A stretch of DNA of 64,000 nt from Candidatus Woesearchaeota archaeon (GTDB lineage Archaea > Nanobdellota > Nanobdellia > Woesearchaeales > BM511), in contig PKTL01000069.1 of the NCBI GenBank assembly GCA_002867475.1, forward strand, positions 9,382 through 73,381, read 5' to 3'. The notes beneath the pieces were generated by a model that did not search any database, was not told the DNA's origin, and saw nothing but the letters and a program-made list of their open reading frames with translations. This document shows, one piece after another, positions 16,186 to 51,237 of this stretch; positions within the stretch are counted from its first letter, which is position 1, and every line of letters starts with the position of its first letter. Position numbers and translations under genes: made by a program.

Positions 16186-16297
16186 TAGCGGGGAGAGGAT
16201 TTGAACCTCCGACCTCCGGGTTTCTTGATCTCTGATCGAGAATTCGACCTTGGAGATATATGAGCCCGACGGGCACTCCTAGCTGCCCTACCCCGCT
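16186..16297 (-). tRNA. tRNA-iMet(CAT) with 37-nt intron (16222-16258) at 37/38
   Basis: AGCGGGG acceptor, GGG/CCC anticodon stem, CAT at 16260-16262, GGTTCAAATCC T arm. Confidence 0.92.
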
Positions 16298-38646: not shown

Positions 38647-38841
38647 TTATATCATCTCACCGATCTCAACATATTCATCTTCTAGGAATCCATCTTCTAG
38701 ATCGCTGATTACTTTTTCATCCTCAAATACTGCGTTACCTGTTGTTACTGAAATATCTTTTTCTTCGTTTGTTGAAACTTCTGTATTAGTACATGCAGTA
38801 AAAGCTAAAGCAAGAACCAATAAAACCATTAAATATTTCAT
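38647..38841 (-). CDS. Small lipoprotein
   Basis: FTAC lipobox, C-terminal EIGEMI. Confidence 0.65.
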   Translation of the reverse strand: MKYLMVLLVLALAFTACTNTEVSTNEEKDISVTTGNAVFEDEKVISDLEDGFLEDEYVEIGEMI

Positions 38842-39788
38842 CAGTAAACACCTCCTTTAACACCTGTTTCTTCGCTGCTAGCTGAAGGTTCTTTAGGTGC
38901 TGTAGTTGCACTTTCAGTTGGTGCTTCATCACTGTTTGAATCTTCTGAATTATCGCTTGATTGCTCTCCAGTTACGGTTACTGAATTACTATCTTCATTG
39001 CTTGGTGCTGAATCAAAATTTGGTTCTTCATTCTTGTTTTCGAATGTTGATTCCACTTGCACTTTCAGTTCTGTCTCTGCTGCTTTGTTCTGTATGCTTG
39101 TGCTTACCGCTTCTTCTATCACTCTTTTTGCTGCAGTTTCTTTTTCTTCACCGCTCATCTTTGAATAAACATCACTTAAGAATGTTTTTGCTCCATCAAC
39201 TGTTGCAGAACCACTTTTTATTTGTTGTACTGCTTCAGGATTTTCTAATCCTAATAATGCGAGCTTACTTTGAAATTGTAAAGCGTTGTACTCATTCTTT
39301 TTCTTTTGAATCTCTGTTTCAAGTGCTTTTACCTGTTCTTTTTCCTGATTTTTTATCTGTTCTTTTATACTATTTTTTACTGCTTCCTCTGTTACGACTT
39401 CGCTTACTGTTTGTCTGAATTCAGTTATGAGATCTCTTGATTCTGCTTTTATTGAAAGATAAACTTCACTTAGATAAGTTGTGTTTGAATCTAAATTAAT
39501 ATTTTGTAGTTCTTCTAGTAAAACTTCGAGTTCGGATAAAATTTCACCCATTCTTGTTGTGTTAAAAGCTGGATACTCCTTATTTATCTCTTCAATTATC
39601 AGGTTTCCATCAATTATTTTGTCTGTAAGATCTTGCTCTAACTCTAAGAATCTTACTTCTCCACCATATTCATTATTGAATGCTGAGACTTCTGATAAGT
39701 CTTCAACTAGTACTTCTGGCTCTGCAAAACCTATACCCATTAGGAATATTGCAAAGATTGCCAAAAACATTATTTTTTTTGTTTTCAT
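38841..39788 (-). CDS. Secreted coiled-coil protein
   Basis: Signal peptide MKTKK..., GGAGG RBS. Confidence 0.7.
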   Translation of the reverse strand: MKTKKIMFLAIFAIFLMGIGFAEPEVLVEDLSEVSAFNNEYGGEVRFLELEQDLTDKIIDGNLIIEEINKEYPAFNTTRMGEILSELEVLLEELQNINLDSNTTYLSEVYLSIKAESRDLITEFRQTVSEVVTEEAVKNSIKEQIKNQEKEQVKALETEIQKKKNEYNALQFQSKLALLGLENPEAVQQIKSGSATVDGAKTFLSDVYSKMSGEEKETAAKRVIEEAVSTSIQNKAAETELKVQVESTFENKNEEPNFDSAPSNEDSNSVTVTGEQSSDNSEDSNSDEAPTESATTAPKEPSASSEETGVKGGVY

Positions 39789-39877
39789 ATTATTGCCTCC
39801 CAGTTTTTTGTAAATAGTATTAAGATGGAACAAGATATTAATTTTTACCGGAACTAAGCGGAACTACCGGTGAGAAA

Positions 39878-40576
39878 TCAGTTTTTTAAGGTTAATCTGT
39901 TACTCATCCCGACCTTTTCTTTTGAGATGATGTCTTTTCTTACCATTGACTCAATGTTTCTTGAAACACTGCTTTTTGGAAGGTTTGTCTTTTCTTCTAT
40001 ATATTTTTGAGTTAATGGTTTTTTGCTCTTTTTTAGAATATCATAAATTATCTTTTGCCTTTCAGTTAGAAAAGCTGGGTCTATTCTTTTTGTTTTCTTT
40101 TTCTTATGAAAAAAGAAGAAATATGCTGCAAGTAAAATCAAGATTATAATTGATAAGAAAATAGAGATTAAGTAATTATTGTTTTCAAGCCTGTTTATTG
40201 AGTATTGAACTAGGATAACCAAACTTTCATCTCTTCCAGTACCAATAACTGTTATTGAATCATCTTGATCTATTCTTGAGAGATGTCTTGTTTTTAGATA
40301 ATTGATGTCCAAATCCTTTGGCATGTGAAGCCTGTATATGAACTCATCAAACGTTTCATCCATTGTCATATTGAAAAGCCAATATTTGCCTTTTTTAGAA
40401 GTGTAATTAGGGTTTGGTTGTTCAGTTAATAAATTTGGATAATTCGAGATTCCTTCAATTATCACATTGCCATCATCTTCTAAGAATATATCAATATCTG
40501 CATAATATCCAGCAAATACAGAGTTTATCATAAGAATAAATACTGTTAAACATAAGAATATGTTCTTAGATCTCAT
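39878..40576 (-). CDS. Membrane-anchored protein with C-terminal winged HTH
   Basis: Signal peptide, TM, LTQ..I...TNLPKSSVSR....GMSN. Confidence 0.8.
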   Translation of the reverse strand: MRSKNIFLCLTVFILMINSVFAGYYADIDIFLEDDGNVIIEGISNYPNLLTEQPNPNYTSKKGKYWLFNMTMDETFDEFIYRLHMPKDLDINYLKTRHLSRIDQDDSITVIGTGRDESLVILVQYSINRLENNNYLISIFLSIIILILLAAYFFFFHKKKKTKRIDPAFLTERQKIIYDILKKSKKPLTQKYIEEKTNLPKSSVSRNIESMVRKDIISKEKVGMSNRLTLKN

Positions 40577-40733
40577 AATTATACTAAGTTCTGGTTAAAT
40601 AAAAAGCTTTTGTCTTTGAAAACTTTTTTATAATATTGTTTTCATATAATCATTTATGGATAGCTATTATTTAAATCTTTCGATTATTTTGTCTTTCATT
40701 AGTAGTAACATAAAAGACTTGATTTCGAATTGT

Positions 40734-40753
40734 AACTAACATCGCTGTTACAT
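40734..40753 (-). repeat. Site S1, collapsed attC-like mini-site
   Basis: AACTAAC-ATCGCT-GTTACAT. Confidence 0.7.
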
Positions 40754-40917
40754 ACCCCGAAACAAAGTTTATGATTGACTTTAGTCCAATCAATAAACGA
40801 CTTGAGAGTGCAACGAGGTCGACTGAAGGGAGAAGTTTTAGAGCCCGAAAAAGAGTTAGTTTTTCAAAGTAGTGACAAACCGTAAGATTTATATTTAATT
40901 TAATCGTGCTTTTTATT

Positions 40918-41283
40918 ATGTCAAAAAATAACGAAAAAAATTTATCAACTATAATGTATCTTGCAGAACAACTTGGTATTAATCTTGATGATAAAAGAAC
41001 TGCTATTGCTACACCTGAAGAAATGAGCACAGCAAGAATGTATGATGGTTCTTTAGAAGCTAGAGTAATTCCTAATTCTAGACCTGCTGTTGAAATTGAA
41101 ACTCCAAGAGGTCCAGGAATTTGGATAGAATTAGTTGACCACACTAGAGATTTAGCTCCAGAAGGAGCAATATATCAAATAAGAACTTACGTACCTAAAG
41201 AAGATCATAAAGAAGGTTTAACTGGAGATGTTTATTCTGTTTATGTTGGGAAAACTGGAATTATGCTTGATTTGCCAAAATAA
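40918..41283 (+). CDS. Hypothetical protein (cassette A cargo)
   Basis: ORF filling the cassette; TTTATA box at about 40888. Confidence 0.7.
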   Translation: MSKNNEKNLSTIMYLAEQLGINLDDKRTAIATPEEMSTARMYDGSLEARVIPNSRPAVEIETPRGPGIWIELVDHTRDLAPEGAIYQIRTYVPKEDHKEGLTGDVYSVYVGKTGIMLDLPK

Positions 41284-41321
41284 GTTGATAATTCTGCATT
41301 GAAATAGGGCTCTAAAATTGT

Positions 41322-41341
41322 ATGTAACATCGCTGTTAAAT
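41322..41341 (-). repeat. Site S2, collapsed attC-like mini-site
   Basis: ATGTAAC-ATCGCT-GTTAAAT. Confidence 0.7.
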
Positions 41342-41497
41342 ACTCCGAGTCCGAGTTTAACTTGAACTTTAGTTCTAAGATTAAACGAAACGAGAGCGCA
41401 ACGGGACAAGGAGCGACTAGCGACGCAGAGTAAATTAGAGTCTTATTCTTCAAAAGAGTGAAACGATGCATTGAAGCTAACTTAAAAGGGCAATTTT

Positions 41498-41800
41498 TTA
41501 TTCAAATTTGATATTTTCATATTTTTTAAGATGTTTAGAACTATGCTTATATACAACATCATGATGTTCATAATCAACAAAAAATACGGTTCCGTCATCT
41601 CCAAAAAATAAAATTACATAAGAATTATTCACATGAACACGTTTAAATTTCTTTAAATCTTATGAAAGATTTTTATAATGATATAAATTATCTGAATTTA
41701 GAATTTCATCTCTTTTATTAAGAATATTTTGAAGCTCTTTTCCTTTAAGCTTCTTAAGAGCTTTCTTGAAAAGATTGCCATATTTTCTTTTTCTCATCAT
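41498..41800 (-). pseudogene. relE: RelE-family toxin with premature TAA at 41660-41662 (cassette B)
   Basis: Manual translation MMRKRKY...HYKNLS*DLKKFKRVHV...YVILF...DYEHHD.VY; similar to 42512-42775. Confidence 0.8.
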
Positions 41801-42045
41801 AAATTAGCTCTATCTTTAAGTTCCTTTTCAAAGATATCAGCTTCTTCGTCTGATAAAAAAGAATTAGCATCTTTACTATTCAATCTTTCTAAATATTCTT
41901 CTCTTACTTTGAAATTATCAAAGATTTTTTCACGTGCAGCTTCACGCATGAATTCTTGAACATTCAAAAAACCATGATTTTTAGCATATTCTTTAGCTTG
42001 TTCTAAAAAATCTTCAGATAATCTTAGATTTATTTGCGTAGTCAT
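41797..42045 (-). CDS. RHH antitoxin (cassette B)
   Basis: MTTQINLRL..QEFMREAAREK; overlaps the toxin start. Confidence 0.8.
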   Translation of the reverse strand: MTTQINLRLSEDFLEQAKEYAKNHGFLNVQEFMREAAREKIFDNFKVREEYLERLNSKDANSFLSDEEADIFEKELKDRANL

Positions 42046-42133
42046 AATATTATATGATATTACATAATATTTAAAACTATCGCTTAATCTTAAAAAATTG
42101 CCCATTTTCAAAAAAAAGACTCTAATTTATTGT

Positions 42134-42159
42134 ATTTAACATCAGGATCGTTGTTAGTC
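42134..42159 (-). repeat. Site S3, short attC-like site
   Basis: ATTTAAC-ATCAGGATCGTT-GTTAGTC. Confidence 0.65.
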
Positions 42160-42287
42160 AGTGAGTCTGCAAGACGAACGAAGGAGCGAATAGCGACTGA
42201 CAGTATGACGCAGAGAGCCGAACGGGCTTAAACGTAAAATTTATATATGATTAAATAACATTAAATAATATTATTTAAGGTGATAAA

Positions 42288-42515
42288 ATGAGTATAAAAT
42301 CTTTTAACGTCGATGAAGACACATATGGGAAATTTTCCTCTTATTGTAAAGAAAATGGGATAAGTATGAGTAAACAAGTGGAAACCTTCATGAAATCAAT
42401 GATTGAAGAAGATCCACAAGTGAAACAAGAATACCTAGAAAAATTAGAAAGAATAAGAAAAGGAAAATTCGTAAAAGTAAACAACTTTGCTGAGAGATAT
42501 GGATTAAAAGAATGA
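42288..42515 (+). CDS. RHH antitoxin (cassette C)
   Basis: KSFNVD...F..YC...G..MSKQVE; ATGA overlap with the toxin. Confidence 0.8.
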   Translation: MSIKSFNVDEDTYGKFSSYCKENGISMSKQVETFMKSMIEEDPQVKQEYLEKLERIRKGKFVKVNNFAERYGLKE

Positions 42516-42775
42516 GTTATGAACTTGAAATCCATGAAGATTTAGATAGAACTTTTTCTAAACTTTCAAAGAAAAATAAGAAACAATTAGAAATAATCTT
42601 CAAAAAAGTTGATGAAATTCTAAAAAATCCATATCATTACAAACCTCTTCGTGGAGACATGAAAGGTTCAAGAAGAGTTCATATCGATAAACACTTCGTT
42701 CTAATATATGAAATTCTTAAAGAATCAAAAGTTGTTCGATTACTAGACTATAATCATCACGACAAAGTTTACTAG
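42512..42775 (+). CDS. relE: RelE/YafQ-family toxin (cassette C)
   Basis: NP.HYKPLRGDMKG.RRVHI...VLIY...HHDKVY. Confidence 0.9.
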   Translation: MSYELEIHEDLDRTFSKLSKKNKKQLEIIFKKVDEILKNPYHYKPLRGDMKGSRRVHIDKHFVLIYEILKESKVVRLLDYNHHDKVY

Positions 42776-42797
42776 TTCGGCTCTTGAGTAATATTGT

Positions 42798-42886
42798 AAC
42801 TAACATCGCTGTTAAATGAGGTTTTCTGATAAGAAAATCTGGAAGAGCGCCGAGCCGAGGCGCGAATCATTTAATCGCTGTTAGAC
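42798..42886 (-). repeat. Site S4, full attC-like hairpin (89 bp)
   Basis: TAAC-A-TC-GC..TTAAATGA...TCATTTAA..GC-T-GTTA with two internal sub-hairpins. Confidence 0.85.
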
Positions 42887-43007
42887 GACCCGAACCATAC
42901 AAAGTGAAGGTGAGAGCGCAGCGTGGCAAGAAAATCTATGATTTTCGCAGAGTTCTTTTGTTTGCCCGTACATAAATTTAAATAGTTACTTTGAATTAAT
43001 AATTATA

Positions 43008-43850
43008 ATGGTTTCACTTAATAAATATCTTAATATTCTTCAAAGAGGAATTGATAACTTTATTAGTTTTGAATCTAATTCAATTTTAGAGAAAAAACAA
43101 TTCCAAGCTAATTTTAATAGTGATGAAATTGAAAAAATCATCGAAGTAATTGAAAATCAAATCAAAATCATAAAAAAAGCGATTAAGCATGCAGATTTTT
43201 ATCGAATTCATCTTGAAGTTATGAATAATAAAGAACTTGTTGCATACATGGAAATTAACAAGAGAGTTCCATATTTTGAGTTCCGTTATAATCAAGTTTT
43301 TTCTCAACAAAAAAAAGTGATGGAGAAAAGATTAAAAGAATTAAGTAAAGAACAATCTAAAGCAATCAGTTCATGGAATTCAATAATAGGAATCTTTAAT
43401 ATATTCTGCAACGAATCATTACATTTACTAAAAAAACAAAGAAGATATTTAGAAAAATATGAAAAAAATCCTGCAAAATATACAAAGAAAAGTTTGGGAA
43501 ATAAAATGAGGAAATTTCTTAAAAATGACTTTGAAGGATTATTAAAAATTGAGGAAAAATTATTTTTAACTGTTCTTTATTCAAGTAAAAAAGAATCAGA
43601 GAATTTGAGAGAATTTGGTAAGGAAATTGAAAAATTATTACATTTAGAGGAATTCAAAATGTATCCTCATATCCCTGGTTTAGTCCTAAACATTTTTCCT
43701 GAGGCAGGTTTATCAGATATAGCATCTGCACCATTTCATGCAGCAGGATTTTTTCTTAGTATAATTCAAAGAACCAACAAATATTACAAAGAGTGGAACG
43801 AATTCATTAAAGATAATGCTTTAAAGAGCAAACAAAAGAATTTTGTCTAA
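43008..43850 (+). CDS. Hypothetical helical protein (cassette D cargo)
   Basis: 280-aa ORF whose TAA stop lies in the GTCTAAC core. Confidence 0.75.
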   Translation: MVSLNKYLNILQRGIDNFISFESNSILEKKQFQANFNSDEIEKIIEVIENQIKIIKKAIKHADFYRIHLEVMNNKELVAYMEINKRVPYFEFRYNQVFSQQKKVMEKRLKELSKEQSKAISSWNSIIGIFNIFCNESLHLLKKQRRYLEKYEKNPAKYTKKSLGNKMRKFLKNDFEGLLKIEEKLFLTVLYSSKKESENLREFGKEIEKLLHLEEFKMYPHIPGLVLNIFPEAGLSDIASAPFHAAGFFLSIIQRTNKYYKEWNEFIKDNALKSKQKNFV

Positions 43851-43933
43851 CATCGCGATTAAGAGAAGTTATTTTGCAAAAATAATTTGGATGAGGGCGC
43901 TGCAAGGCCCGAATCTCTTAATCGCTGTTACAT
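43845..43933 (-). repeat. Site S5, full attC-like hairpin (89 bp)
   Basis: TAAC-A-TC-GCGATTAAGAGA...TCTCTTAATCGC-T-GTTA. Confidence 0.88.
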
Positions 43934-44043
43934 ACCCCGAAACAAAGCTTAACTTGTCGAAGACTAAGATTAAGCGACTTGAGAGTGCAACGAGGTCGAG
44001 AATTTATGAAATAAATTCGAAGAAGTTTTGTTTTTAGCGCCGT

Positions 44044-44298
44044 TTACAATTTCTTGTAAACCTTGCTTCGATGATCTGCATGAATGACATATATAATCAA
44101 TTTATTATCTTCAATGTCAGCGATTACTCTGTAATCTCCAACTCTTAATTTATATTCAGAACGACTTGATAATTTTACAAAGTAATGATGAGGGTTTTCT
44201 TTTGTTTCTTGAAGCTTCTTAAAAATTCTTTGAGAAATGTCTTTAGGTAATTTTTCTAAATATGTTGATACTTTTTCATCGAAAACTAATTCATACAT
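44044..44298 (-). CDS. relE: RelE/ParE-family toxin (cassette E)
   Basis: ENP....KL....YKLRVGDYRVI...HR..VY. Confidence 0.92.
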   Translation of the reverse strand: MYELVFDEKVSTYLEKLPKDISQRIFKKLQETKENPHHYFVKLSSRSEYKLRVGDYRVIADIEDNKLIIYVIHADHRSKVYKKL

Positions 44299-44299
44299 T

Positions 44300-44539
44300 T
44301 TACAATCCTAATCTTTTAGACATTTCTGCTTCAGAAACTAAATTTCCTTGTTTGATACGTGCTCTTGCTGCTTCAATAGCTTCAATAGTTTCTTTACTAA
44401 GCTCAGGTTCATCTTTAACATGTTTTACAATATGAACTAGTTTAGTAATCACTTCATCATAACTTTCATTACGATATTCTCTAAATTTATCAAGTTCGGA
44501 CTTTGTCCCGTCATGAATTTTAATAGTTGTCGCAGTCAT
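44300..44539 (-). CDS. Antitoxin (cassette E)
   Basis: TTIKI...K..L...ESYDEVI..L; directly upstream of relE. Confidence 0.8.
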   Translation of the reverse strand: MTATTIKIHDGTKSELDKFREYRNESYDEVITKLVHIVKHVKDEPELSKETIEAIEAARARIKQGNLVSEAEMSKRLGL

Positions 44540-44626
44540 TTTATATCACCTTTGAGTTTACTTCAGTATACCATAGTAAACTAAAGTATATAAATGTATG
44601 CTTTAAGGCGCTAAAAACAAAATTGT

Positions 44627-44688
44627 ATGTAACTTCGGGTTTTGACGAAGTTTTTCGTCAGAAAAATTTTGTTTAAACCCTGTTACGC
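44627..44688 (-). repeat. Site S6, attC-like hairpin (62 bp)
   Basis: GTAAC-T-TC-GGGTTT...AAACCC-T-GTTAC. Confidence 0.8.
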
Positions 44689-44969
44689 GAACCGAAAGCC
44701 TTTTGCTGAGGGAAGTTTTTGCTCGTGCTAATCTTAGTCAGACATACAATAATATATTATTATACTATGTATAATATATTATGTATGGTCTAGACTATCA
44801 AGATTAGTAGCACAGGAGTCAAACCTCCTTAGCACACAAAAAGTCTTAGTTCGAGCTCCACAGGGCTTGAATTTCGTAAAAAACTTTTTACGATGACTAT
44901 TTGCTTCTGAAATCGAAGCAGGCAAAAGCTATGCTGCTATTTTGTGCTAGAGCAAAAATTTTGCGTAAC
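44682..44969. other. Gene-less, highly structured cassette F
   Basis: No ORF in the track; nested inverted repeats across its length. Confidence 0.75.
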
Positions 44970-45056
44970 ATCGCGATTAAGAGAAGTTATTTTGGAACAA
45001 AATAATTTGGATGGAAAAGTCTGCAAGACTTTGGAATCTCTTAATCGCTGTTAGTT
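44963..45056 (-). repeat. Site S7, full attC-like hairpin (94 bp), close relative of S5
   Basis: Same outer stem as S5; different inner hairpin (AAAGTCTGCAAGACTTT). Confidence 0.88.
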
Positions 45057-45137
45057 TCTTCTGATAAGAACGAGGAATAACTGCAAGTGGTTTTTGACGA
45101 AGTCAAAAAATTCCGAAGAGTAATTTTTAGCCCCCAT

Positions 45138-45557
45138 TCAATATCTTTTAGTAATATAAAGAGTAGCTTTAAAATTATCAATATCTCCAGTTGAAAGAAA
45201 TCTACTTTCTAAACTTGGACCTAAGTATAAATTAGAAGTTTTATCAGCAGTAAAATTAGGCACTGGCATAATTCCTGCACACCCCATATACCCATCTTTT
45301 AGCTTTAATAATAAATCTTCTTCAGGTTCATCAAATTCAACCCCTGTTTGACTTAACATAAAATCAACTGGCGTAGAATAATTTTCTGCAAGTGAATATA
45401 ATCCTCTTCCAACAATAAAAATTGGACCTGTCATCACGATATGTTGAGGATTAAAAGGCATATCCTCTCCAGACATCATTCTTTGTGAGATTTCATTTCT
45501 CATAGATTCAATTGCAGCTTCAACAAAACCCATATGAATTGCGTTATTATCTTTCAT
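45138..45557 (-). CDS. Hypothetical protein (cassette G cargo)
   Basis: 139-aa ORF filling the cassette. Confidence 0.7.
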   Translation of the reverse strand: MKDNNAIHMGFVEAAIESMRNEISQRMMSGEDMPFNPQHIVMTGPIFIVGRGLYSLAENYSTPVDFMLSQTGVEFDEPEEDLLLKLKDGYMGCAGIMPVPNFTADKTSNLYLGPSLESRFLSTGDIDNFKATLYITKRY

Positions 45558-45622
45558 AAAAAGTGTAACTACTAAATAGTTTATATACTTTTCTTTTTTT
45601 AAAGGGGGCTAAAAATTATTGT

Positions 45623-45708
45623 AACTAACATCGGAATTTAACGAAGTCGCCGAAGGCGATTTGGGAAAAATGCGAGCCGAGCATTTTTCCGTTAAATTCC
45701 TGTTAGCC
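45623..45708 (-). repeat. Site S8, full attC-like hairpin (86 bp)
   Basis: CTAAC-A-TC-GGAATTTAACG...CGTTAAATTCC-T-GTTAG. Confidence 0.88.
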
Positions 45709-45941
45709 GACCCGCAGCTACGAGCGATGTTTTGAGCGGAGTGGCAAGGGCAAGGTTTAACTTGCTTGCAAGATTAAACCGCAGAGTTTTCTTACTGCCG
45801 AGAACTAGATAGGTGCCGTAGTTTTAACTTACTTTAGAAAAATCCTATACATAACGAGTGAAACGAGACAAATTAGTTCGCTAGAACTGGGGGCGTTCTT
45901 AAAAAAAATATTTTATGTTTAATAATTCATGAATTATTTTA

Positions 45942-47402
45942 TTAACATTTAATTGTGAATTTAATATTTATTGTTGAAGGGATATCTATTTCTATAAAAT
46001 CTGCTCGTAAAATTCCATTTTCTTCTATTCGAAATTGTGCATTAATTATATCATCATACTTATTTTGACCTAATTCAATACCACATTCTTTATCATCGCA
46101 CCATGAAGTATCTCTTTGAATATTTGTTGTGGTGTTTAAAGCATTTAATTCCATAAAACATTTTGATAAATTGTATTTATTTTCTTCCAATCTATATATG
46201 TATTCCCTATAATGTCCTACTGAATAATTTAATTTATTATTAATATAAATGCTTACTTTACAAGTATTATTTTCACAAGTTGTTAAATCATCATATTCAT
46301 ATCTTTTATTTCTATCTTCTTTAACAAAACCTTTAAGGATTAATTTTGAAATATTTTGATCTTTAATTTTAAATTTATTAAATTTTAATAGAATCATACC
46401 TTTATTTTCATTTAGCAAAATTTTTTCAAATCCGAATCTATCGAAAGAATCTTTTAAATTATTGTTTGAAATATCATAAAACCCATCAATTATTTTATTA
46501 TTTTTATCTGTTAATAATTCAAATTTATCATCATGATCCGCACTAGTATCTATATTATATTTTCCATAATTTATAGGTATTAGAGGTATAGTACTTGTCA
46601 TTAATCCAAAATTATTTTTGATTTTAATGGGGACTTCAATATTTCTATAAATATATTCACTATTGCCATGGTCAATATAATAATTTACTAATTTTTCATC
46701 ACCATATGAAAAAAATGGAATAGATATTATTGTTGATATTATACCTAATAAAATTATAATAGGAATTGCATAAATAATAAATTTTTTAGTATTAAAATTT
46801 TTTGCTAATTTTTCATTTTTATCCTTTTTTAGAAATTCCTTGATTGATTTATCAAAATTATTAAATATTGATTTGAAATAAACATTATAAATAATAAAAC
46901 AAATCATCAAAAGCATTAAAAAGAGTATAAATAATATGATTCCCTCAGCCAAAAATTCATGTAAATAAGGAATTAATGCAATAATAATAATATTTTTGAT
47001 GAGAATTATTAGAAAAAATAATTGGATAAATAATAAAGATATAAACCAATTTCCTAAATCTTTTTTTGAACATTTATGTTTGTTACGATAAATTATAAAA
47101 AAAATAAAAATAAAACCTATTCCTGCAAAAATAATCCCTAATTGTGTGATTTCCCAAGACTTAGAAATGTCAAAATCTAAATTAAACCTATTGCTAAAAT
47201 AAGTTCCTAAAAAGAAAGTAAATAAAGCAGTTATAAATAAAAAAAGCCAAATAACTATTAAATCAATTACAGAATTAGAATTATTCAATTTGAATTTTCC
47301 TTTATTTTGGAATTTTGACCATAGTAAAAAAGTTAATAATATTGAAACTACTAAATACCCAGGCATATTAACCAAAAGATCAAATAGATTTTCCCAACCC
47401 AT
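45942..47402 (-). CDS. Multi-TM membrane protein with soluble C-terminal domain (cassette H)
   Basis: 486 aa, very AT-rich, several TM segments. Confidence 0.7.
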   Translation of the reverse strand: MGWENLFDLLVNMPGYLVVSILLTFLLWSKFQNKGKFKLNNSNSVIDLIVIWLFLFITALFTFFLGTYFSNRFNLDFDISKSWEITQLGIIFAGIGFIFIFFIIYRNKHKCSKKDLGNWFISLLFIQLFFLIILIKNIIIIALIPYLHEFLAEGIILFILFLMLLMICFIIYNVYFKSIFNNFDKSIKEFLKKDKNEKLAKNFNTKKFIIYAIPIIILLGIISTIISIPFFSYGDEKLVNYYIDHGNSEYIYRNIEVPIKIKNNFGLMTSTIPLIPINYGKYNIDTSADHDDKFELLTDKNNKIIDGFYDISNNNLKDSFDRFGFEKILLNENKGMILLKFNKFKIKDQNISKLILKGFVKEDRNKRYEYDDLTTCENNTCKVSIYINNKLNYSVGHYREYIYRLEENKYNLSKCFMELNALNTTTNIQRDTSWCDDKECGIELGQNKYDDIINAQFRIEENGILRADFIEIDIPSTINIKFTIKC

Positions 47403-47539
47403 AAAATTATTTATTAAATCTTTTATTTAAAAAGCTTTCTTGTGAGTTTGCAAAGATTGGGATAAATTTCTCAATTATTTATCCCAAGACAGCGTTTAAA
47501 AAAGAAAGAGTTATATAATTAAATAATAAATTGAAATAG

Positions 47540-48205
47540 ATGTCAGAAAAATTAACAGGTTCAGAAATTGAAAAAAAAGTATATGAACACATTATAAAAA
47601 GTGTTGGTATGGGTTATACTACTGACTTTAATCCTTTAAATTTATCTACAGAAGGGATTGCTGATTGTCTTGGTTTATCAATGGAAGAAGTTGAAGAAGC
47701 AATCAACAAACTAAAAGGTGAAGGTGAATCAACCAATATTGAGAGAATAGAATCTGTGAAACCTAAATTTGAAATTTGGTTACCTAAAACTAAAAAAGGT
47801 AAAGAAGTTTTAGATGAATTATGTAATTCAGGCGTTGCTATTAAAGGTTCAATGCAATGGTTTTACACTTTTTTACTTTTGGCAGCTTCATATATTTTCA
47901 CATTTGAAAAACCATACTTAGCAAATGTGTTAGAATTAAAATCATTTAATGAGTATTTTGTATGGGCTGTTATTTTTACAGGGATTTCATCATACTTTGG
48001 AAGTTATTTGGCTCATAAATGGCATCAAATAAATTATGAAATGGAAAGAATAAAAGGCGGCAAATATTACATTTATGCATTTATATTATTGATTTCAGGA
48101 ATAATATATAGTTGGATGAAAGAAATAGATGTTGCACTTATCATTACAAGTGTAGGAACAATAGCAAATTTGGTATTAGTAATATATCAAATCATAAAAA
48201 AATAA
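47540..48205 (+). CDS. HTH-like N-terminus plus TM protein (cassette H)
   Basis: STEGIADCLGLSMEEVEEAI segment followed by TMs. Confidence 0.65.
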   Translation: MSEKLTGSEIEKKVYEHIIKSVGMGYTTDFNPLNLSTEGIADCLGLSMEEVEEAINKLKGEGESTNIERIESVKPKFEIWLPKTKKGKEVLDELCNSGVAIKGSMQWFYTFLLLAASYIFTFEKPYLANVLELKSFNEYFVWAVIFTGISSYFGSYLAHKWHQINYEMERIKGGKYYIYAFILLISGIIYSWMKEIDVALIITSVGTIANLVLVIYQIIKK

Positions 48206-48206
48206 A

Positions 48207-48917
48207 ATGGCAAAGAAAAAATCATATGAAGAAGGGAGTATTGCAGATTTTGCAGCTCAGGGATTAAAAAATATTAAGAAATTATCAGGAAGTTCTTTAA
48301 TGAGTGAAAAATTAGTTGGTTTAAGCACATTTTTATTTTCATTGGTATTTACCTTTAGTTTCGGTAAATGGTTAATACAACCCGAACAGTTATATGAAAT
48401 AAGTTCAGTAGTTATTTTAATTTTAGGATTAATGATTGGTCTAGGATTATCTTCAGGTTATTCATTTATATTGTTAGCAATTTCAGACTTTGCAAAAGAT
48501 AAAATTCAAAGTTTAAGATTAGGAATTGTTTTCTTATTTATTTCAATTCCTTTGTCAATAGCGGGATTAGCATTAAATTCAAACTTTTTCATAGCTTCTA
48601 GTTGGATATTAATTGTTGTTCAACTTGCATTAATCTTGTTAAGTTTCTTTTTTAGCTTTTCATCTCAGAGCATTCCAGATATTAAAGTAAATGCTTCAGG
48701 TATATGGAAATCTATAGGTAGAGCTGGGTCAATTGCAAGTATATTAGGTTTAGTATTGGCTGTTTTAGTAATACTCGCACCACAATATTTCGGACAAACA
48801 TTATACCAATGTATTGATGGAACTGTTCAAAAAAGTTTAGAAGCATGTCCAAATATAAAAGAATATTTAGTCACATTTGCTAAAGAACAAGGATATAATT
48901 TAACTAATATTAACTAA
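48207..48917 (+). CDS. Membrane protein (cassette H)
   Basis: Multi-TM ORF. Confidence 0.65.
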   Translation: MAKKKSYEEGSIADFAAQGLKNIKKLSGSSLMSEKLVGLSTFLFSLVFTFSFGKWLIQPEQLYEISSVVILILGLMIGLGLSSGYSFILLAISDFAKDKIQSLRLGIVFLFISIPLSIAGLALNSNFFIASSWILIVVQLALILLSFFFSFSSQSIPDIKVNASGIWKSIGRAGSIASILGLVLAVLVILAPQYFGQTLYQCIDGTVQKSLEACPNIKEYLVTFAKEQGYNLTNIN

Positions 48918-48944
48918 ATTAAAAAATATGGGGAAAAAATAAAA

Positions 48945-49250
48945 ATGGAAAATAAAGAAATATTTATTCAAGCTATAAATGAAAAAAAGAAAGTGAAAGT
49001 GAAAATCAATACTGATGAAAAAGGAATTATTATAAGAGATTGTATTCCTTTTGATTTCGGAACTGGTAAATTGCCAGGAATCAGATATCATTTTCTCGAT
49101 TTAACTAGTCCTGATGGACCTCACAATTTATCTGTTTTACCTAATAAATTATTAGAAATTGAAATTTTAGATGAAACATTTAATCCTGCTGATTACATTA
49201 AATGGAAACCTAATTGGAAATTAGCAAGAGATTGGGGAGAATTTTCTTAG
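48945..49250 (+). CDS. Hypothetical protein, possibly WYL-like fold (cassette H)
   Basis: AI..KK.V.....R.C.P.DFG....I.IL.ETF.P pattern resembles stand-alone WYL-like proteins. Confidence 0.55.
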   Translation: MENKEIFIQAINEKKKVKVKINTDEKGIIIRDCIPFDFGTGKLPGIRYHFLDLTSPDGPHNLSVLPNKLLEIEILDETFNPADYIKWKPNWKLARDWGEFS

Positions 49251-49496
49251 ATTTTAAGAACGCCCCTTTTTATTTTCTTTTTTTTCTAAAGTAAGTTAAA
49301 ATTTGGGTGGAGTGCGAGGTTTTCTCGTGCGTAACCGTTAAACATTTGTTAGATACAATCTTTCCAATGTATATTATACGAAGTTTTTTCTAAGCCTTCT
49401 CCTCTATGAGAAGAGCTTTCCCTTTTAACGAAGGCACCTACCTTTTTAGATTCCCGGGCACGTTTTGTCGTCTACAAAAGGCAGTAAGAAAATTTT

Positions 49497-50460: not shown

Positions 50461-51237
50461 ATGAATGTGTCAAAAATAATATTTGATAAATTGTTTATTC
50501 AAGGTTGTAGTATGAAAACCATAACTGCTTATGAATTGCAGCTAGAAAAGTTTCTTGAGTGGGTTGATAAGCCTCCATTAAAAGTCAAACAAAAAGATAT
50601 TGAAGAGTATACCAAATATCTAAGAAGAAATGATTATGCCCATTCAAGTATTAGGCTTTCCCTTAATGCTATCAAATATTATTTTGTGAAAATAATGAAG
50701 AGAAGGTTTGAGATTTCCATGCCTAAAAAACATGAGAAACACACAGGCGTTTGTGATAGAAATGAGATTGTTGAAGCAATTGATAATTTAAGAAATCCAA
50801 AGCACAAATTACTTCTTGCATTGCTATATGGTTCTGGTGTTCGTGTTAGTGAAGCTGTAAAGATTAGGCATGATGATATTTTTGATGATTATGCAGTTAT
50901 CAGGCAAGGTAAAGGAAGTAAAGATAGAAAGATAATAGTTTCTGATATTTTTCTAGAATTATATGAACCTTTTAAAAAAAGAAAAGGTTTTGTTTTTAAT
51001 GGTAGAAATTCTCATTTGACTGTTAGAAGTGTTCAAGAGATAGTTAAAAAAGCGTTTAAGGATAGACATGTTCATCCTCATATGTTAAGAGCAAGTTTTG
51101 CAACGCACCTTTACGAGTCAAGTGTTGATAAGCATAAGATCCAAAGATTACTTGGTCATAAGGATGTGAGAACTGTTGAAGTTTATACTAAGTATTCAAA
51201 GTTCGATCCAGAAGTTAAAAGCCCTTTAGATATTTAA
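50461..51237 (+). CDS. Tyrosine recombinase, integron-integrase-like but without the IntI-specific insertion
   Basis: LLYGSGVRVSE, GKGSKDR, HMLRASFATH, LLGH, VYT; C-terminal KSPLD. Confidence 0.93.
   Translation: MNVSKIIFDKLFIQGCSMKTITAYELQLEKFLEWVDKPPLKVKQKDIEEYTKYLRRNDYAHSSIRLSLNAIKYYFVKIMKRRFEISMPKKHEKHTGVCDRNEIVEAIDNLRNPKHKLLLALLYGSGVRVSEAVKIRHDDIFDDYAVIRQGKGSKDRKIIVSDIFLELYEPFKKRKGFVFNGRNSHLTVRSVQEIVKKAFKDRHVHPHMLRASFATHLYESSVDKHKIQRLLGHKDVRTVEVYTKYSKFDPEVKSPLDI

Follow-up and report, generated by a model that had tools for sequence, protein, structure and literature searches.

Cassettes that carry no gene are already known from bacterial integrons. By the working definition of Blanco et al. 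(2024, PMC11014356) a cassette is gene-less if it holds no open reading frame (ORF) of at least 70 amino acids (aa); most of the 29 such Vibrio cassettes had promoter activity, as did ORF-less oral cassettes of Treponema (Tansirichaiya et al. 2019, PMC6557892), and promoters, small RNAs and protein-binding sites are the roles proposed in the former, whose main text nowhere mentions hairpins or secondary structure. In archaea, integrons and clusters of attC sites lacking integron-integrases (CALINs) have been described from uncultivated lineages as tandem cassettes with attC-like hairpins, many cassettes holding toxin-antitoxin genes and most arrays being without IntI (Ghaly et al. 2022, PMC9668308); that study defines integrons by an IntI with an extra domain, uses Xer as an outgroup only and is silent, by a search for the terms, on non-coding cassettes, closing stems and Xer-linked attC arrays. 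Here we analyse 64,000 nucleotides (nt) of a Candidatus Woesearchaeota archaeon (contig PKTL01000069.1, positions 9,382 to 73,381; hereafter the window), in which an array of eight cassettes (40731-49356, + strand) includes a gene-less one, C6 (44683-45050, +).

The array resembles those archaeal ones in its tandem cassettes, its attC-like hairpins, its many toxin-antitoxin cassettes and its uncultivated host, and differs from them in that the linked recombinase gene is Xer-like, lacks the extra domain and, in each of the 21 linked cases, lies downstream and runs in the same direction as the array. C6 itself is like the bacterial gene-less cassettes in being bounded by attC, in having no ORF of at least 70 aa and in lying among toxin-antitoxin and orphan-gene cassettes, whereas its archaeal host, the Xer-like recombinase, the lack of a promoter box of the local type and a hyper-structured cargo (z of about -9) set it apart. 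Xer-type recombinases also move the pdif modules of Acinetobacter plasmids, which are small gene modules, often toxin-antitoxin, with plain 28-bp double-stranded sites in alternating orientation; the sites of the present array are, in contrast, long hairpins in one orientation with an integron-type G|TT crossover signature. In the following we demonstrate that C6 is a real, complete, gene-less cassette, and weigh what its folded cargo may be.

Boundaries and gene content of C6

C6 lies between two attC-like hairpins. The upstream one is the attC of the ParE toxin-antitoxin cassette C5 (44626-44690, +), with TAAC/GTTA pairing and an R' core, GTTACGC, beginning at 44682, so that the crossover falls between G 44682 and T 44683. 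The downstream one is the cassette's own site (44962-45058, +), with R'' GCGTAAC at 44963-44969, R' GTTAGTT from 45050, two extra bases on the 5' arm of its hairpin and about 89% identity to the 5' arm of the attC at 43844-43935 (family D1). The original prediction, made from the letters of the window, had delimited a mobile, non-coding cassette of 288 bp. This extent is correct as the distance from the upstream R' core to the cassette's own R'' core, but the cassette in the integron sense, consisting of a leader, a closing stem, a cargo of 225 nt and its own attC as far as the G of R', covers 44683-45050 and measures 368 bp.

When folded as DNA, these two sites and the remaining hairpin attC-like sites of the array (42797-42888, 43844-43935 and 45622-45710, all +) form one kind of hairpin, in which TAAC pairs with GTTA, a short spacer stays unpaired, another helix follows and the tip is branched; two extra bases bulge out of the 5' arm. 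Compensatory changes are found in 13 of the 26 consensus pairs of their alignment. A covariance model built from the five sites (R1) matches nothing else in the whole 1.67-Mb genome. It scores them at 59-94 bits on the + strand and 16-27 bits on the - strand (59 against 16 for the upstream site, 79.2 against 23.6 for the C6 site), a gap wide enough for the orientation of a site to be called. Sites recognised by R1 (E up to 1e-3) occur in 54 of the 151 genomes of the order, the own genome included, or in 53 of 150 without genome G452.

A signature of crossover stands at the start of C6. At 3 of 3 variable positions the boundary 7-mer GTTACGC agrees with the reverse complement of GCGTAAC, the R'' of C6 itself, against 0 of 3 for the downstream R' GTTAGTT, and the six opening bases TTACGC exactly complement the R'' core GCGTAA. 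The same match is present in the three neighbouring cassettes and, family-wide, in 29 of 38 cassettes (the window and 17 of the 20 fetched arrays), compared with 9 of 38 for the downstream R' as control. A boundary complementary to the own R'' is the crossover signature of the classical integron type, between G and TT; C6 thus has both traits by which integron cassettes are recognised, an attC hairpin with R''-L''...L'-R' cores and the G|TT signature. The claim of mobility is sustained by the two folding, covarying sites on either side, by the opening bases complementary to the own R'' and by parts of C6 that are joined to other attCs in two other metagenomes (see below).

No gene is found between these boundaries. 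Eleven ORFs of at least 20 aa overlap 44640-45060, and the longest in the element, a 48-aa frame that begins with TTG, is on the - strand; no frame of at least 70 aa with an ATG, GTG or TTG start exists, and C6 is gene-less by the definition of PMC11014356. In a tblastn search of C6 with 1,376 ORFs (frames of at least 50 aa from the arrays and from 38-52 kb of the window), all matches with E < 8e-4 were confined to the attC part, and the lone weak match outside it fell in the leader (E 8e-4, 33% over 24 aa). The earlier description of C6 as non-coding therefore holds.

The three layers of the fold

The 288 nt had been claimed to fold along their whole length, and they do: as RNA the + strand reaches -100.9 kcal/mol (z -9.69, with 0 of 200 shuffles as good) and the - strand -89.1 kcal/mol (z -6.50). 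Every feature named in the original prediction is present at its position, and the stems appear in the predicted fold. Two of the three layers are, however, generic to cassettes of this family, and what is special is the inner 225 nt. The outermost layer, the 7 bp GTTACGC/GCGTAAC, is the ordinary crossover complementarity of R' and R'' in integrons. The second is a cassette-specific closing stem, in which TTTTTGCTC (44716-44724, +) forms a perfect 9-nt complement with GAGCAAAAA (44950-44958, +), the latter ending 4 nt ahead of the R'' core.

Closing stems, counted as a perfect complement of at least 9 nt between the first 220 nt of a cassette and the last 30 nt ahead of R'', are present in 29 of 37 cassettes, compared with 101 of 1332 mismatched cassette pairs. 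Their 5' half begins 33-98 nt past R' in 28 of the 29, and their 3' half ends 4 nt ahead of R'' in four cassettes of the window, as derived from the printed offsets; on inspection by eye each window cassette has a closing stem of its own sequence. Promoter and gene of the cassettes are enclosed by this perfect inverted repeat of 9-16 nt, in which the sequence varies and the pairing is kept. In an excised circle the closing stem would close the junction that holds attC and leader. For C6, stem and flanks (GAGGGAAG-TTTTTGC ... GCAAAAA-TTTTG) match the L''/first-hairpin arrangement of typical attCs in other genomes.

The third layer, 44725-44949, gives a z of -8.90 as RNA, -10.11 as + strand DNA and -7.12 as - strand DNA. 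Only one of 2,924 windows of 225 nt sampled from the own genome (14 contigs, + strand) folds below -74.8 kcal/mol, and that one has 52% GC; another gene-less cassette, in genome G428 (L167, 4721-5031, longest ORF 36 aa), has a z of just -3.57. These comparisons indicate that the cargo of C6 is exceptional in its own right.

The leader preceding the closing stem (44683-44715, +) starts, in an alignment of cassette starts, with TTACGC as the rest of R' and continues with GAACCGAAAGCC..GAGGGAAG. Its words AGGGAAGTTTTT(GC) recur, by blastn-short, inside the attCs of 12 other array loci (L140-L185), and attCs of other genomes show the succession of AGGGAAGTTTTT(GC) and ...GCAAAAA TTT(T)G as their L''/first-hairpin pattern. 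Most cassettes have a semi-conserved leader of 40-110 nt past R' (40747-40830, 41335-41430, 42880-42960, 43927-44042 and 45702-45800), typically with ..CCCGAA.., a hairpin TTAACTTG/CAAGATTAA with compensatory changes, GAGAGYGCAACGRGG, a second hairpin and CGMAGAG just ahead of the closing stem, in this order.

The cargo opens with a bulged hairpin of 89 nt (44725-44813, +; z -6.21), delimited by GTGCTA (44725-44730) and TAGCAC (44808-44813) and with all bulges on its 3' arm. The base of this hairpin, GCTAATCTTAGTC / GACTATCAAGATTAGTAGC, resembles the leader hairpin of C5, and the 11-nt word GACTAAGATTA occurs in the window only in that leader hairpin (43962-43972, +) and at 44729-44739 (-), where 0.07 occurrences are expected. 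The apex is an AT-rich palindromic segment of 55 nt (44736-44790) with two ATAATATATTAT palindromes, at 44749-44760 and 44771-44782, which lie 22 nt apart from start to start and have no other copy in the window, 0.11 being expected by chance; it is likely an insertion in the loop of a leader-type hairpin. A short hairpin of 16 nt follows, AGGAG-TCAAAC-CTCCT (44814-44829, +), present in both the minimum-energy and the centroid fold, and then a multibranch domain of 120 nt (44830-44949, +) closed by TAGCACA/TGTGCTA, in which TAGCAC at 44830 pairs with TTTTGTGCTA at 44940 and three inner stems are formed, TTCGAGC/GCTTGAA, TCGTAAAAA/TTTTTACGA and TGCTTC/GAAGCA.

The cargo folds better on the + (top) strand, a property it may share with the attC sites and leaders. 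Of the 151 triloop hairpins with stems of at least 4 bp in 64 attC-plus-leader segments (window and L167-L186), 95 have a GNA loop when read on the top strand (GAA 45, GCA 26, GTA 23) and none has TNC. GNA triloops closed by C-G are very stable DNA mini-hairpins, and the strong asymmetry suggests that the top strand may be the one that folds in this system, unlike the bottom strand of classical integrons.

Origin and possible function of the cargo

Relatives of the cargo are few and partial. The Rfam check proposed in the original prediction gave no family above threshold at C6: at gathering thresholds the window yields a single match, a tRNA (16186-16297), and of nine matches in 44500-45150 at E up to 10 none is credible, the best (E 0.53) reaching 24.6 bits where the family threshold is 100. 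By blastn C6 is single-copy in its own genome, and BLAST searches of 60 relatives and 400 genomes of the phylum returned just AT-rich or leader words of at most 37 nt. At E up to 0.1 a single-sequence covariance model of 44814-44949 had no match among the order's 150 other genomes, and the 20 fetched arrays gave it no credible one (best E 0.18); phage and plasmid collections gave no blastn match to C6, and viral contigs 0 matches to each of three exact words. The search for copies, also proposed earlier, was thus negative in the own genome and 460 others, and succeeded in part in two metagenome runs.

In run X2 a piece of 151 nt corresponds to 44674-44760 (4 differences, 5 gaps), that is, R', leader, stem and the start of the hairpin, behind a different attC. 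In run X3 a contig of 1,435 nt contains 44736-44790 with 0 differences, then 155 unrelated letters in the place of 44791-44894 (104 nt), and then 44895-44971 (5 differences and 2 gaps, about 91% identical), running into a different attC; an attC-like piece stands about 550 nt ahead of the hairpin apex. The element therefore exists elsewhere, as a mosaic joined to other attC interiors, and where runs X2, X3, X4 and X6 leave a stretch uncovered, this is not to be taken as evidence of absence. As the cargo ends meet different attC interiors on both sides in X2 and X3, either exchange or homogenisation of attC interiors takes place within hosts, or R'' can be a place of crossover too. Cassette C5 (44044-44627) is found on a 921-nt contig of X3, an unrelated run, at about 93% identity (41 differences and 2 gaps over 584 nt), which indicates that cassettes are shared between communities. 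Two further searches returned chance matches: the double-palindrome pattern hit at least 119 loci of metagenome contigs, all AT-rich chance matches by blastn, and a 20-mer hit two genome contigs, both by chance and both in bacterial metagenome-assembled genomes. A miniature inverted-repeat transposable element or other repeated palindromic element was rejected as well, C6 being single-copy, its end pairings generic cassette features and no flanking duplication visible.

Signals for transcription are weak in C6. In the own genome the motif TTTAWATA peaks 30 nt ahead of ATG, standing at exactly -30 in 43 of 1,166 upstream regions, so that the mRNAs are probably leaderless for the most part. The coding cassettes C3, C4, C5 and C7 have this box ahead of their genes at log-odds of 3.4-4.0, and 8 of 10 parsed tRNA genes have it at 2.6 or more, whereas C6 has no strong TATA box: its TATA-like words are ATATATTA (2.0), twice per strand, and TAAAAAAC (2.4), with nothing higher. 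By this sequence proxy the idea of a promoter cassette, one of the roles originally suggested, finds no support. The word ATATATTA at 44774 is about 4-fold enriched ahead of genes. Oligo-T acts as a terminator in archaea, and T5 runs lie on the + strand at 44716-44720, at the cassette entry, and at 44884-44888, in the 3' domain, with T5-T6 runs on the - strand. The T5 runs and the weak boxes would speak against a regular long transcript, without excluding one.

Thus, we tentatively propose that C6 is a complete, mobilisable cassette without a passenger, built in part from the hairpins of the system and in part from an inserted AT-rich palindrome. In this mechanism the TTACGC remainder of R', the short leader, the closing stem and the intact attC hairpin would be sufficient for excision and re-insertion, and 225 nt of hairpins would take the place in which other cassettes hold promoter and gene. 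The closing stem would have been copied from the first inner hairpin of typical attC sites, and the base of the long hairpin would represent a leader-type hairpin, whose loop now contains the palindrome of 55 nt. C6 would yield no protein and probably no regular transcript, and may persist because the recombinase can move it, as a hitch-hiker folding compactly on the + strand; we infer that it folds as single-stranded DNA and has no function for the host. The empty cassette that figured among the roles first suggested gains from the 11-nt word common with the C5 leader hairpin and from the closing stem, which copies the first inner hairpin of an attC.

Several points weigh against this proposal. 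A profile hidden Markov model of 30 leaders has no match in C6, so that its construction from parts of sites rests on two short word matches, and the cargo has no loop of the GNA type, by which hairpins belonging to the system are marked. A z of about -9 and five separate hairpins exceed the needs of a hitch-hiker and may mean selection for a function; likewise, the gene-less start is kept at about 90% identity in X2, which suggests an arrangement that is kept and not merely decaying. That the Xer-like enzyme acts on the sites and moves the cassettes is likewise inferred. Finally, the multibranch domain has what is expected of a + strand RNA, with a z of -4.64 on the + strand against -2.10 on the - strand and all 5 G.U pairs of the + fold against 1 in the - fold, and the word at 44774 combined with the 30-nt spacing leads to a start at about 44804, where the 3' domain begins.

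These last observations also speak for the main rival reading, a small RNA gene as the cargo, which we regard as possible if doubtful. The AT-rich palindromic hairpin would be a weak promoter, possibly with an operator, and the + strand would be transcribed from about 44805 into a product of about 84 nt, ending at the T5 run 44884-44888, or of about 140-155 nt over the whole multibranch domain. Besides the strand bias and a predicted start adjoining the first base of the domain, X3 has the apex with its two TATA-like words unchanged and the 3' end at about 91% identity. A bacterial precedent for RNA cargo would be sRNA-Xcc1 of Xanthomonas, which is reportedly borne by an integron. Small RNAs are, moreover, among the roles proposed for gene-less cassettes in PMC11014356. 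On the other side, the word at 44774 scores 2.0, well below the coding cassettes and most of the tRNA genes, the T5 run lies inside a stem of the 3' domain, and neither an Rfam match nor a structural relative in 150 genomes is found; X3 has unrelated sequence in place of the 5' half, so that the full RNA structure is not conserved. A helix of about 35 A-U pairs is also unusual for a cellular RNA. Of the non-coding RNA suggested originally, the + strand bias of the fold keeps the possibility, while the internal T5 run and the lack of relatives with a conserved structure count against it.

A wider form of the same idea, that the cargo is a strand-specific folded nucleic acid with a function, either a small RNA or a single-stranded DNA element, spread by an archaeal Xer-linked system, seems to us rather unlikely. 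As a DNA element it could act in cassette movement, for example by priming second-strand synthesis of the excised circle or by engaging the recombinase, and the AT-rich palindrome of 55 nt would be an exchangeable module between otherwise different cassettes. A number of known structured elements were considered and dropped: a C/D-box or H/ACA guide RNA (no C' box), a bulge-helix-bulge splice motif (both bulges on one strand), a rolling-circle origin (nick motif limited to the 7-mer CTTGATA on the - strand) and domain V of a group II intron, all by eye, together with a retron (reverse transcriptase absent nearby) and a further attC within the cargo (where R1 has no match at E up to 1).

It is unlikely that C6 is the remnant of a coding cassette, from which a gene between closing stem and hairpin was deleted and the non-coding flanks were left. 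The apex stands about 550 nt past an attC-like piece in X3, compared with 54 nt here, which gives room for a gene of 130-170 aa, and the presence of C6 as a single copy in its own genome agrees with such an origin. However, the coding cassettes are compact, their closing stems abutting promoter and stop codon, and 225 nt of hairpins would be atypical as a flank; tblastn finds no protein remains, the gene-less start recurs in X2 at about 90% identity, and the fold is far too strong for a decayed coding sequence.

A double-stranded regulatory cassette, whether as a promoter of its neighbours or as an operator or decoy binding a dimeric regulator such as the antitoxin of a neighbour, is improbable. 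The reports of promoter activity in bacterial gene-less cassettes (Vibrio, PMC11014356; Treponema, PMC6557892) offer a parallel. The two identical palindromes, unique in the window, are 22 bp or two helical turns apart, and the array has at least four toxin-antitoxin pairs with DNA-binding antitoxins. C6 has, on the other hand, no strong box, and because every coding cassette has its own, a shared promoter is not needed; the gene of the downstream cassette is on the opposite strand with T5 runs between, and the 136-nt 3' domain as well as its + strand bias would be left unexplained. A tiny toxic peptide gene of type I toxin-antitoxin kind, the 24-aa hydrophobic ORF MLVLILVRHTIIYYYTMYNILCMV (44719-44793) within the strongly structured long hairpin, is scarcely credible even in an array type in which toxin-antitoxin cassettes are common, since it has a TTG start and neither an upstream box nor a ribosome-binding site, a charged R-H pair breaks the hydrophobic run, and I/L/Y-rich frames arise from the composition of an AT-rich palindrome alone.

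The array, its recombinase and the meaning of C6

The source genome (1.67 Mb in 84 contigs, about 31% GC, 95% complete) is archaeal in the gene content of the window, with the NOG1 GTPase, a Cdc6/Orc1 with Cdc6 lid and an archaeal MCM winged helix. In addition to orphan ORFs without any Pfam or NCBIfam family, the eight cassettes hold three toxin-antitoxin pairs of ParE/ribbon-helix-helix type, a HicAB pair standing just past the array, and between the cassettes lie repeats of the pattern RYYYAAC ... GTTRRRY. Apart from the five hairpin sites the array has simple, hairpin-less ones at 40731-40753, 41319-41341, 42132-42160 and 49330-49356, with TGTAACTAAC-ATCGCT-GTTACATACC and relatives. These show TAAC-6 nt-GTTA at 40731 and 41319 and related forms at 42132 and 49330, and look like plain double-stranded core sites of tyrosine recombinases, apparently with two arms and a spacer of 6 or 12 nt. 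They terminate the cassettes C1, C2 and C8. The last, of 3.6 kb, contains an ORF of 486 aa at 22.8% GC and three more ORFs, all without a family, and is flanked, by eye, by two nested inverted repeats of about 20 nt (45822-45842/49280-49302) and about 15 nt (45888-45903/49250-49266). Directly left of the array an ORF of 330 aa (38841-39833, -) without Pfam or NCBIfam match adjoins a membrane-anchored winged-helix protein (39878-40576). The tRNA match mentioned above lies on the - strand and has 112 nt against the 71 positions of the model, so that this gene probably contains an intron.

The candidate enzyme for the movement of cassettes is an Xer-like tyrosine recombinase of 258 aa (50461-51237, +), encoded downstream of the array and codirectional with it. 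Its best family match is the archaeal XerA, NF040815 (171.8 bits, cut-off 220); against the integron-integrase model TIGR02249 it scores 132 bits (cut-off 265) and aligns with model positions 7-168 and 242-313 only, skipping 169-241. In the alignment with IntI4 (2A3V) the R, H-x-x-R, H and Y motifs are present, and the 65 residues 181-245 correspond to 15 residues in the recombinase, which lacks the domain specific to IntI. No IntI integrase with the additional domain was found upstream of the first cassette, nor any other candidate in the 95% complete genome. A match to the XerA family (E up to 1e-40, with 16 weaker matches left out) lies within 10 kb on the attC contig in 21 of the 54 genomes with attC sites, and in all 21 it is downstream and points the same way as the attC top strand; in genomes G009 and G020 another XerA, located elsewhere, scores higher. 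A full-text literature search found no description of Xer-linked attC arrays.

Gene-less cassettes being known already in bacteria, C6 adds a case from a barely described archaeal, Xer-linked system, and few stretches of its own genome fold as tightly as its cargo. The separation of the fold into generic and specific layers guards against over-reading the whole-length folds of other cassettes. If C6 is a hitch-hiker without a passenger, it defines the minimal parts of a cassette, namely the remainder of R', the leader, the closing stem and attC, and would be a convenient substrate for testing the movement of cassettes by the Xer-like enzyme. If its cargo instead has a function, what cassette systems can spread includes structured RNAs or DNA elements as well as genes, and C6 would be the first case, for the cassette arrays of archaea, of a non-protein cargo whose structure is defined.

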